This document shows positions 18,871 through 24,053 of a stretch of 64,000 nt of DNA, piece by piece. How positions within the stretch are numbered: the first letter of the stretch is position 1; the number at the start of each line of letters is the position of its first letter. The stretch lies in NCBI RefSeq assembly GCF_003019035.1, contig NZ_CP027447.1; one strand, given 5' to 3'. The notes beneath the pieces are model-generated. The model did not search any database, had not been told where the DNA came from, and saw only the letters and a program-made list of their open reading frames with translations. The DNA comes from Escherichia coli (GTDB taxonomy: Bacteria > Pseudomonadota > Gammaproteobacteria > Enterobacterales > Enterobacteriaceae). Both the position numbers and the translations under genes were made by a program.

Positions 18871-19075
18871 AACGACCTTCTTTTTTGGTTGTAAAAACCT
18901 TATTCTTTATATGAGTGTTGTTATTACCCGACTTACAGGGGAATCGGCAATGTTCATGTGCCCAGAATAAGTCACTATTTCGCTATAAACTGTGGCAGAT
19001 CAAATAATCCCATCACTGACTAAATTGCGTTTCAGCGAACTGGAACATTAATGATTTTTTGTGGAGAAGACGCGT

Positions 19076-20776
19076 GTGATTGTTAAACGACCCGTCTCGG
19101 CCAGTCTGGCCCGGGCCTTTTTTTACATTGTGCTGCTGTCGATTCTTTCCACGGGTATCGCTCTGCTAACGCTGGCGAGCAGTTTACGCGACGCTGAGGC
19201 TATCAATATTGCCGGATCGCTGCGTATGCAGAGTTACCGCCTGGGCTACGATTTGCAAAGTGGCAGTCCACAACTCAATGCACATCGCCAGTTATTTCAG
19301 CAGGCACTGCATTCACCGGTATTAACCAATCTCAACGTCTGGTATGTGCCAGAGGCAGTAAAAACCCGCTATGCGCATCTGAATGCCAACTGGCTGGAGA
19401 TGAATAATCGGCTCAGCAAGGGCGACTTGCCGTGGTATCAGGCCAATATTAATAATTATGTTAATCAGATAGACCTGTTCGTGCTGGCTTTACAGCACTA
19501 CGCTGAACGCAAAATGCTGCTGGTGGTGGCGATTTCCCTGGCTGGCGGCATCGGTATTTTCACGCTGGTCTTTTTTACTTTGCGCCGCATACGCCATCAG
19601 GTGGTTGCCCCGCTGAATCAGCTGGTTACCGCCAGTCAGCGTATTGAACACGGACAGTTCGACTCGCCGCCGCTGGATACCAGCCTGCCGAATGAGCTTG
19701 GCCTGCTTGCAAAAACCTTTAACCAGATGTCGAGCGAGCTGCATAAATTGTACCGTTCGCTGGAGGCGTCAGTAGAAGAAAAGACCCGCGACCTCCACGA
19801 GGCCAAGCGTCGTCTGGAGGTGTTGTATCAGTGTTCGCAGGCGCTAAACACCAGCCAGATTGATGTGCATTGTTTCCGCCATATTTTGCAGATTGTTCGC
19901 GACAATGAAGCGGCTGAATATCTGGAGTTAAATGTCGGTGACAACTGGCGGATTAGCGAAGGGAAACCAAACCCGGAATTGCCGATGCAGATTTTACCGG
20001 TGACAATGCAAGAGACGGTTTACGGCGAACTGCACTGGCAAAATAGTCACGTTTCATCATCAGAACCGCTGCTTAACAGTGTTTCGTCGATGCTGGGACG
20101 CGGTTTGTACTTTAATCAGGCGCAGAAGCATTTTCAGCAGTTATTGTTGATGGAAGAACGTGCGACCATCGCCCGCGAATTGCACGACTCGCTGGCTCAG
20201 GTACTTTCTTACTTACGTATCCAGTTGACGTTACTGAAGCGTTCGATACCGGAAGATAACGCCACCGCACAAAGTATCATGGCCGATTTCTCCCAGGCGC
20301 TGAATGATGCTTATCGGCAGTTACGCGAGCTGTTAACTACTTTCCGCCTGACGCTGCAGCAGGCGGATCTCCCCTCCGCGTTGAGGGAAATGCTGGATAC
20401 GTTACAAAATCAAACCAGCGCCAAACTGACCCTCGACTGCCGTCTGCCAACCCTGGCGCTGGATGCGCAAATGCAGGTGCATTTGTTGCAAATTATTCGC
20501 GAAGCGGTGCTGAATGCGATGAAGCACGCCAACGCCAGCGAAATCGCCGTTAGCTGCGTCACCGCGCCGGATGGCAATCACACAGTCTATATTCGCGACA
20601 ACGGGATTGGCATCGGTGAACCGAAAGAACCCGAAGGCCATTATGGTCTGAATATCATGCGCGAACGCGCGGAAAGATTGGGTGGGACGCTGACTTTTTC
20701 ACAACCTTCCGGCGGCGGCACGTTAGTGAGTATTAGCTTTCGCTCCGCGGAGGGTGAGGAAAGTCAGCTGATGTAA
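19076..20776 (+). CDS. narQ: Nitrate/nitrite sensor histidine kinase NarQ
   Basis: 566 aa from the GTG at 19076 (MIVKRPVSASLARAFF); HAMP and histidine kinase motifs (ARELHDSLAQ). Confidence 0.93.
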   Translation: MIVKRPVSASLARAFFYIVLLSILSTGIALLTLASSLRDAEAINIAGSLRMQSYRLGYDLQSGSPQLNAHRQLFQQALHSPVLTNLNVWYVPEAVKTRYAHLNANWLEMNNRLSKGDLPWYQANINNYVNQIDLFVLALQHYAERKMLLVVAISLAGGIGIFTLVFFTLRRIRHQVVAPLNQLVTASQRIEHGQFDSPPLDTSLPNELGLLAKTFNQMSSELHKLYRSLEASVEEKTRDLHEAKRRLEVLYQCSQALNTSQIDVHCFRHILQIVRDNEAAEYLELNVGDNWRISEGKPNPELPMQILPVTMQETVYGELHWQNSHVSSSEPLLNSVSSMLGRGLYFNQAQKHFQQLLLMEERATIARELHDSLAQVLSYLRIQLTLLKRSIPEDNATAQSIMADFSQALNDAYRQLRELLTTFRLTLQQADLPSALREMLDTLQNQTSAKLTLDCRLPTLALDAQMQVHLLQIIREAVLNAMKHANASEIAVSCVTAPDGNHTVYIRDNGIGIGEPKEPEGHYGLNIMRERAERLGGTLTFSQPSGGGTLVSISFRSAEGEESQLM

Positions 20777-20850
20777 TGCCTCTTATTGACCAAAGAATAG
20801 TGGCACTTAAGGTTCAGTATAAAAGGGCATGATAATTTACATTAACTCCT

Positions 20851-20868
20851 TTTTTTCTCCACGATTGG
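20851..20868 (+). promoter_or_regulatory. BaeR-box-like site upstream of acrD
   Basis: TTTTTCTCCACGATTGGC matches the BaeR consensus TTTTTCTCCATDATTGGC, as I recall it, at 17 of 18 positions; about 70 bp upstream of the acrD start. Confidence 0.55.
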
Positions 20869-20939
20869 CTCGTACCTTGCCGCTACAGTGAAGCAAGTCA
20901 TGCCTACAACGATACGCAGAAACACGAGGTCCTCTTTTA

Positions 20940-23900
20940 ATGGCGAATTTCTTTATTGATCGCCCCATTTTTGCCTGGGTGCTGGCAATCCTGTTGTGTC
21001 TGACAGGTACCCTGGCGATTTTTTCATTGCCCGTTGAACAATACCCCGATCTCGCGCCACCGAATGTGCGAGTGACCGCTAACTATCCCGGCGCATCGGC
21101 CCAGACGCTGGAAAACACCGTGACCCAGGTTATCGAGCAAAATATGACCGGCCTCGATAATCTGATGTATATGTCATCTCAGAGCAGCGGCACCGGTCAG
21201 GCATCTGTCACGTTAAGTTTTAAAGCAGGCACCGATCCGGACGAAGCCGTGCAGCAAGTACAAAACCAGCTACAATCAGCCATGCGAAAGTTACCGCAGG
21301 CGGTGCAAAATCAGGGCGTGACGGTGCGTAAAACCGGCGATACCAACATTCTGACCATTGCCTTCGTCTCTACCGATGGTTCGATGGATAAACAGGATAT
21401 TGCCGATTATGTTGCCAGTAATATTCAGGACCCGTTAAGCCGCGTGAATGGCGTCGGGGATATCGATGCCTATGGTTCGCAATATTCCATGCGTATCTGG
21501 CTGGACCCGGCGAAACTCAACAGTTTCCAGTTGACGGCTAAAGATGTCACCGATGCCATTGAATCACAGAACGCGCAGATTGCGGTTGGGCAACTTGGTG
21601 GTACGCCTTCCGTCGATAAGCAGGCGCTCAACGCCACCATTAACGCCCAGTCACTGCTGCAAACACCAGAACAGTTCCGCGATATCACCTTGCGGGTGAA
21701 TCAGGACGGCTCAGAGGTAAGGCTGGGCGATGTCGCCACCGTCGAAATGGGGGCGGAAAAATACGATTATCTTAGCCGCTTCAATGGTAAGCCAGCCTCC
21801 GGGCTGGGGGTAAAACTGGCCTCCGGCGCGAACGAAATGGCGACAGCGGAGCTGGTGCTCAATCGTCTCGACGAGCTGGCGCAGTATTTCCCGCACGGAC
21901 TGGAATACAAGGTGGCGTATGAAACCACCTCGTTTGTTAAAGCCTCCATTGAAGACGTGGTGAAAACGCTGCTGGAAGCTATCGCTCTGGTTTTCCTCGT
22001 TATGTATCTGTTCCTGCAAAACTTCCGCGCCACGCTGATACCCACTATCGCCGTGCCGGTGGTGTTGATGGGAACCTTCTCCGTACTTTATGCCTTCGGT
22101 TACAGCGTCAACACCTTAACCATGTTCGCGATGGTGCTGGCGATCGGTCTGCTGGTGGATGATGCCATCGTGGTGGTGGAAAACGTCGAACGTATTATGA
22201 GTGAGGAAGGACTCACTCCTCGCGAAGCCACACGTAAATCGATGGGGCAGATCCAGGGGGCACTGGTCGGGATTGCGATGGTGCTTTCGGCGGTATTTGT
22301 ACCAATGGCCTTCTTCGGCGGCACCACCGGTGCCATCTATCGCCAGTTCTCTATTACCATTGTTGCAGCGATGGTGCTGTCAGTACTGGTAGCGATGATC
22401 CTCACTCCGGCTCTGTGTGCCACGCTACTTAAGCCACTGAAAAAAGGTGAGCATCACGGGCAAAAAGGCTTTTTTGCCTGGTTTAACCAGATGTTTAACC
22501 GCAACGCCGAACGCTACGAAAAAGGGGTGGCGAAAATTCTCCACCGTAGCCTGCGCTGGATTGTGATTTATGTCCTGCTGCTTGGCGGCATGGTGTTCCT
22601 GTTCCTGCGTTTGCCGACGTCGTTCTTGCCACTTGAAGACCGTGGCATGTTTACTACCTCGGTACAGTTGCCCAGCGGTTCAACCCAACAACAGACCCTG
22701 AAAGTCGTTGAGCAAATCGAGAAATACTACTTCACCCATGAAAAAGACAACATCATGTCGGTGTTTGCCACTGTTGGTTCTGGCCCTGGGGGTAACGGGC
22801 AAAACGTGGCGAGAATGTTTATCCGCCTGAAAGACTGGAGCGAACGCGACAGTAAGACCGGCACCTCGTTTGCCATTATCGAGCGTGCAACGAAGGCGTT
22901 TAACAAGATTAAAGAAGCTCGCGTTATCGCCAGCAGCCCGCCAGCAATTAGCGGTCTTGGTAGTTCTGCAGGTTTTGATATGGAGTTGCAGGACCACGCT
23001 GGAGCGGGTCACGATGCGCTGATGGCAGCACGTAACCAGTTGCTGGCGCTGGCGGCGGAAAACCCGGAGCTAACCCGTGTGCGCCATAACGGCCTCGACG
23101 ACAGTCCGCAGTTGCAGATTGATATCGACCAGCGTAAAGCTCAGGCGCTGGGCGTTGCTATCGACGATATTAACGACACACTGCAAACCGCCTGGGGTTC
23201 GAGCTATGTGAATGACTTTATGGATCGCGGTCGCGTGAAGAAAGTCTATGTGCAGGCAGCTGCGCCGTATCGCATGCTGCCAGATGACATCAATCTCTGG
23301 TATGTCCGAAATAAAGATGGCGGCATGGTGCCCTTCTCTGCTTTCGCGACCTCACGCTGGGAGACAGGCTCGCCGCGTCTGGAACGCTATAACGGATATT
23401 CTGCGGTTGAGATTGTTGGGGAAGCCGCACCAGGAGTCAGTACCGGTACGGCGATGGATATTATGGAATCGTTAGTGAAGCAGTTGCCAAACGGCTTTGG
23501 TCTGGAGTGGACGGCGATGTCGTATCAGGAGCGGCTTTCCGGCGCGCAGGCTCCGGCGCTGTACGCCATTTCCTTGCTGGTGGTATTCCTGTGTCTTGCG
23601 GCGTTGTATGAAAGCTGGTCGGTGCCGTTCTCGGTAATGCTGGTCGTGCCGCTGGGGGTTATCGGCGCGCTGCTGGCAACCTGGATGCGCGGGCTGGAAA
23701 ACGACGTTTACTTCCAGGTGGGCCTGTTAACGGTCATTGGTTTATCGGCGAAAAACGCCATCCTGATCGTCGAGTTTGCTAACGAGATGAACCAAAAAGG
23801 CCACGACCTGTTTGAAGCGACGCTCCACGCCTGCCGTCAGCGTTTACGCCCGATTCTGATGACTTCGCTGGCATTTATCTTCGGCGTATTGCCAATGGCA

Positions 23901-24053
23901 ACCAGCACGGGTGCCGGTTCCGGTGGTCAGCATGCGGTGGGTACTGGCGTAATGGGCGGGATGATTTCGGCCACTATTCTGGCTATTTACTTCGTGCCGC
24001 TGTTCTTTGTGCTGGTGCGCCGCCGCTTCCCGCTGAAGCCGCGCCCGGAATAA
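20940..24053 (+). CDS. acrD: RND aminoglycoside/multidrug efflux pump AcrD
   Basis: 1037-aa ORF, AcrB/AcrD RND family; K-12 position after narQ. Confidence 0.95.

Follow-up and report, generated by a model that had tools for sequence, protein, structure and literature searches.

The spacer between narQ and acrD on the Escherichia coli chromosome carries a BaeR box that is very probably the operator through which BaeR directly activates the acrD promoter. This BaeR operator of acrD is genuine and was already described about twenty years ago, and confirming a known site adds nothing new. The modest addition made here is a cross-species footprint, which points to selection on two CTCC half-sites, a TTTACA block and a -10 hexamer and not on the 3' GGC of the published box. 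It also sharpens the disagreement between the direct BaeR binding reported at acrD and a negative ChIP-exo result at the same gene.

The whole stretch of DNA analyzed (64 kb, hereafter the window) derives from the E. coli chromosome, and its positions 20600-21100 are 100% identical to the genomes of strains IAI39 and CE10. This identity to annotated RefSeq genomes allowed the flanking genes to be assigned as narQ and acrD, and both the list of open reading frames and the RefSeq annotation of IAI39 place the end of narQ at 20776 and the acrD ATG at 20940. Positions 20777-20939, the range given in the original prediction, are thus exactly the narQ-acrD spacer by annotation. Of 5426 complete E. 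coli genomes, 5424 contain the spacer region. The longest open reading frame of narQ begins with a GTG at 19061, and the RefSeq start lies 15 nt downstream at 19076. The following features of the locus are referred to throughout:

19076-20776, plus strand: narQ, nitrate/nitrite sensor kinase, the upstream neighbour outside the module (RefSeq annotation mapped to the window).
20777-20939, no strand: narQ-acrD intergenic spacer of 163 bp, on which the open reading frame list and the annotation of the identical IAI39 sequence concur.
20831-20841, plus strand: conserved upstream block GATAATTTACA, a candidate co-activator site (possibly for CpxR), with columns 74-100% conserved among 31 sequences.
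20845-20850, plus strand: putative promoter-distal half-site ACTCCT, which reads TCTCCT in most species and lies outside the published 18-mer.
20852-20869, plus strand: published 18-mer BaeR box TTTTTCTCCACGATTGGC, matching the consensus at 17 of 18 positions.
20854-20863, plus strand: evolutionarily conserved 10-mer core TTTCTCCACG, found with at most one mismatch at 30 of 31 orthologous loci, always upstream of acrD.
20856-20861, plus strand: putative promoter-proximal half-site TCTCCA, inside the core and similar to the CTCCAT repeats of the DzrR footprint.
20884-20889, plus strand: putative -10 hexamer TACAGT, at a fixed distance of 30 nt from the core start in orthologues.
20940-24053, plus strand: acrD, RND multidrug and aminoglycoside efflux permease of 1037 aa and the regulated gene (open reading frame; WP_001273136.1 in the identical IAI39 record).

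The 64-kb window contains a single copy of the box TTTTTCTCCACGATTGGC. This copy is on the same strand as acrD, begins 75 nt past the narQ stop codon and is separated from the acrD ATG by 70 nt. Its sequence had been predicted correctly but placed at 20851-20868, one base to the left of its actual position, because the run of T is seven bases long (20850-20856). The consensus TTTTTCTCCATDATTGGC, on which the prediction relied, is indeed the published BaeR motif (Nishino 2005, as quoted in PMC3915751 and PMC3799227). The claimed match at 17 of 18 positions was borne out as well, the sole difference from the consensus being a C in place of T at position 11 (20862), and this score is partly circular because the acrD site is among those that define the consensus. 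With up to three mismatches to TTTTTCTCCATDATTGGC allowed, the acrD box was the only site in the window. In K-12, the acrD box is identical to that of the window, the mdtA box reads TTTTTCTCCCTTATTGGC and the spy box TTTTTCTCCATAATTGGC, and the region upstream of ycaC, the fourth reported BaeR site, contained no match to the 18-mer within three mismatches. Three sites, those of mdtA, spy and acrD, are thus what the consensus is built on, and it is essentially their alignment; the degenerate D at position 12 is filled by A, T and G in spy, mdtA and acrD, respectively. The non-circular part of the evidence is that these promoters, otherwise unrelated, have 15 of the 18 positions in common, with the similarity stopping at the box edges. 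All three carry TTTTTCTCC..[ATG]ATTGGC, oriented alike with respect to their genes.

Orthologues were searched for with the AcrD N-terminus as query in one genome per species, which yielded about 31 orthologous loci (78-99% identity, from Escherichia to Budvicia and Edwardsiella) and also about 48 loci of AcrB-like paralogues. With at most one mismatch, the core TTTCTCCACG appeared exactly once in the 400-nt region preceding acrD at 30 of the 31 orthologous loci, from Escherichia to Hafnia and Edwardsiella, against a background of 0.012-0.024 occurrences per 400 nt in the remaining fetched DNA. The only orthologue without the core under these settings was that of Budvicia diplopodorum (acrD 78% identical), for which loss or relocation of the site, or a different regulation of acrD, may be the reason. 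In an ungapped alignment anchored on the core the flanks were scrambled, and what survived was the block GATAATTTACA.T.TCTCCT..tTTTCTCCACG.TT followed by about 17 variable bases and TA.AGT. Information content, computed with one sequence per genus (19 genera), averaged 1.92 bits in the core, 1.66 in the upstream TCTCCT, 1.59 in TAnAGT and 1.43 in GATAATTTACA, as against 0.30 bits in the 3' GGC of the published box and 0.21-0.37 bits in the flanks. This GGC (20867-20869) is common to the mdtA, spy and acrD boxes of E. coli and is not conserved upstream of acrD outside this species; in the E. albertii acrD box TTAGT replaces TTGGC. It may make a contact that is specific to Escherichia, or the box may work without it.

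Within E. coli, the 60-nt block at 20830-20889 was exact in 5335 of 5386 matching records, compared with 1423 of 4964 records for the adjacent 60 nt of spacer, a further 3530 records there being at 90-95% identity. Between the window and K-12 we counted five differences in the spacer, none of them inside the conserved module. Only 11 of the 31 orthologous loci showed a narQ-like gene within the 2.5 kb preceding acrD, and the element therefore belongs to acrD and not to narQ. Judged from these comparisons, the element shows strong purifying selection and stays with acrD.

The footprint further indicates that the functional unit is wider than the published 18-mer. BaeR is a regulator of the OmpR/PhoB family, and such regulators bind tandem direct repeats as head-to-tail dimers. 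Consistent with a dimer of this kind, two direct-repeat half-sites in helical phase were found and both are conserved: in the window and in 27 of 30 orthologues, the distance from the core CTCC to the CT[CT]C upstream of it is exactly 11 bp. Downstream, a -10-like hexamer starts 30 nt from the core start, with T at its first and A at its second position in 30 of 30 orthologues (TAAAGT in 11, TACAGT in 9, TAGAGT in 5, TAAGGT in 3 and other variants in 2). Counted from TACAGT, the -35 position reads ACGATT (20861-20866), which is no recognizable -35 hexamer, and the half-site TCTCCA reaches into this position. A scan of 20650-21050 with the sigma-70 consensus found no promoter, which is what one would expect if the promoter depends on an activator and lacks a -35 hexamer. 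Taken together, the conserved pair of CTCC half-sites at 11-bp spacing, the empty sigma-70 scan and ACGATT at -35 point to an activator-dependent promoter.

Upstream of the half-sites, the block GATAATTTACA has one GTAAA, on its bottom strand (20836-20840). The block could be a CpxR site, but the tandem CpxR box GTAAA-N5-GTAAA had no match within two mismatches in 20777-20939. A Fur-box reading of the GATAAT in this block was rejected, as only 10 of 19 positions agreed by hand check. A similar TTTCATAAT is located just upstream of the CTCC repeats of mdtA.

No mapped acrD transcription start or promoter was found in the literature. The supplements of Kim 2012 list an acrD start of three reads only, 624 nt upstream of the ATG and inside narQ, and the Cappable-seq supplement has no entry near the expected acrD start coordinates. 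The weak start of Kim et al. 2012 corresponds to window position ~20316 (K-12 U00096.2 position 2584993). Some read-through from narQ into acrD is possible because of this three-read start and because no terminator-like hairpin follows narQ (none in the scan of 20650-21050).

The assignment of acrD to the BaeSR response, which had been proposed from the box, is supported by the reported binding site, membership in the core regulon, RNA-seq of a baeR deletion and the phylogenetic footprint. Four BaeR binding sites have been reported in E. coli, that of acrD among them (PMC2731931), and the core Bae regulon is small, comprising spy, mdtA and acrD (PMC3160322, PMC4107485). Expression of acrD rises upon BaeR overexpression or baeS mutation (PMC3160322, PMC4107485, PMC10904727), and phosphorylated BaeR is needed for its direct regulation, as stated in the summary of Hirakawa 2005 in PMC10052836. 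In RNA-seq under 5% ethanol, deletion of baeR lowered acrD by log2 -2.91 (~7.5-fold, p 2e-39), and in unstimulated cells acrD was unchanged (log2 -0.20; PMC7657598 supplements). BaeR also shifts an Erwinia amylovora fragment upstream of acrD that carries the homologous element, the gel shift appearing as a smear. This shift fits the position of the core in other Erwinia species, where it lies ~156 nt upstream of acrD.

Direct activation by BaeR has to be weighed against the possibility that BaeR controls acrD only indirectly, the module being bound by another factor, such as CpxR or a regulator with BaeR-dependent levels, or being simply core promoter DNA. The main argument for this comes from BaeR ChIP-exo in K-12 under 5% ethanol, in which no peak was called upstream of acrD, yet the gene was BaeR-dependent in the same experiment; the authors considered acrD to be indirectly regulated, and the gene is outside their BaeR iModulon (PMC7657598). 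Moreover, acrD was reduced in a cpxR deletion (log2 -1.87; PMC7657598 supplements), and the conserved TTTACA block, with its bottom-strand GTAAA, adjoins the box. However, the 21 peaks called in total include the mdtA and spy regions (PMC7657598), and the mdtA peak (2153931-2153967) spans the whole sister box (2153945-2153962). The box type is thereby validated in vivo, but acrD itself is left unconfirmed. With no more than 21 peaks in the run, BaeR binding at acrD could plausibly have been missed if the site is weaker or depends on a partner. A CpxR-centred reading also conflicts with PMC2731931, in which CpxR is reported to enhance BaeR-dependent induction of acrD, its effect strictly needs BaeR (citing Hirakawa 2005) and CpxR overexpression alone gives no induction. 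Further points against purely indirect control are the direct binding at acrD reported, at second hand, in PMC2731931 and PMC10052836, the shift of the orthologous Erwinia fragment by BaeR, and a spacer that lacks the canonical CpxR tandem box at the threshold given above. We consider indirect control unlikely.

Two further readings deny the element a role as a promoter operator, and both are far less probable. That the conserved sequence is instead a 3' element or terminator of narQ, a small RNA or part of a 43-aa open reading frame on the minus strand (20837-20968) seems highly improbable. This ATG-initiated frame does overlap the box, and the element lies close behind the narQ stop codon. 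Nevertheless, the scan for terminator-like hairpins was empty, as was an Rfam scan of the spacer at E<=1, and the conservation takes the form of short blocks with variable spacers between them, which is not codon-like. The 43-aa frame was rejected because stop codons break it in Enterobacter and Pluralibacter, and a link to narQ was rejected because the element persists without narQ next to it, namely in the 20 orthologous loci with no narQ-like gene found upstream. To a functionless chance resemblance we give practically no weight. T-rich intergenic DNA does yield partial matches, with 0.26 expected per shuffled window at up to three mismatches, but at no more than one mismatch the expectation falls to 0.00 (100 shuffles), and arithmetic with uniform composition gives ~3e-4 matches per window. 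Chance was refuted by the conservation data, that is, by a core retained in 30 of 31 orthologues over a background of 0.01-0.02 per 400 nt and by a block that is near-invariant in 5335 E. coli records beside a variable spacer.

Under direct activation by BaeR, envelope stress (indole, Zn/Cu, tungstate, ethanol or flavonoids) would activate the sensor kinase BaeS, which would then phosphorylate BaeR. A head-to-tail dimer of phosphorylated BaeR would be expected to occupy ACTCCT (20845-20850) and TCTCCA (20856-20861), whose CTCC motifs are 11 bp apart. If TACAGT (20884-20889) is the -10 hexamer, transcription would start near 20896 and the tandem BaeR site would be centred near -41. From there, standing in place of the missing -35 (ACGATT), it could recruit RNA polymerase in a class-II-type manner, much as PhoB does, and the block GATAATTTACA would offer a candidate site for the reported enhancement by CpxR. 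The additional AcrD, together with AcrA and TolC, would export aminoglycosides, anionic beta-lactams, bile salts, metals and enterobactin.

The pho boxes of PhoB are tandem direct repeats with ~11-bp phasing that replace a missing -35 beside a recognizable -10 and thereby mediate class-II activation. The acrD module would resemble them in having a tandem site with the same approximate phasing in place of the -35, although its half-site sequence is unrelated to that of the pho box; the class-II geometry at acrD, together with its start site and -10 hexamer, is one that we infer from conservation only. Among the BaeR targets, both mdtABCD-baeSR and spy have, like acrD, a second CTCC upstream of the box in helical phase (at 10 bp in mdtA, 11 bp in acrD and 22 bp in spy). 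The mdtA box is also similar to that of acrD in its closeness to the start codon (53 nt and 70 nt before the ATG, respectively), whereas the spy box is much further out at 138 nt. In contrast to acrD, the mdtA and spy regions have ChIP-exo peaks.

A related arrangement is found in the DzrR box of the desAB operons of Dickeya and Burkholderia, where the DNase I footprint CGGTTCTCCATCATATCTCCATATT comprises two CTCCAT direct repeats 11 bp apart (PMC10052836). These CTCCA(T) repeats compare with CTCCT and CTCCA at the same distance upstream of acrD, and in both cases the site lies upstream of an RND efflux operon, is associated with an OmpR-family response regulator and takes part in an envelope-stress response. 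On the other hand, DzrR, though related to BaeR, is a different regulator, with AdeR as its best-characterized homologue, and acts without phosphorylation according to the authors (PMC10052836); the pump under its control and the taxa concerned are also different.

More tentatively, and with a chance of being right that we would put slightly short of being wrong, the published 18-mer may misdescribe the operator. The selected unit would then span about 37 bp (20830-20866), made up of the TTTACA block and two CTCC half-sites 11 bp apart in place of the -35, with an invariant 30-nt spacing to TAnAGT, all conserved across Enterobacterales, and the 3' TTGGC would be dispensable or Escherichia-specific. 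Stable occupancy of acrD by BaeR would need a partner, for example RNA polymerase itself, or CpxR acting through the TTTACA block, and regulation would not be indirect. If this is true, the negative ChIP-exo result at acrD would reflect partner-dependent occupancy and not indirect regulation.

Induction of acrD through BaeSR adds to tolerance of aminoglycosides, anionic beta-lactams, bile salts, metals and tungstate. Mutations in baeS in E. coli and Enterobacter raise both acrD expression and the temocillin MIC (PMC10904727), and knowing the operator helps to read promoter and baeS variants in clinical genomes. A structural variant of the spacer was observed in E. coli DETEC-E480 (NZ_CP116181.1), in which a transposition unit of the ISEcp1 family is inserted in the narQ-acrD spacer. 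Its cargo is of a plasmid type and consists of the ISEcp1 transposase, finO, an ANR-family regulator and a truncated thermonuclease. From 20836 onward, directly ahead of the TTTACA block, the sequence is again homologous to the window, and the BaeR module and the -10 hexamer are thus kept. ISEcp1 elements can provide outward-facing promoters, and acrD may therefore be expressed differently in DETEC-E480.
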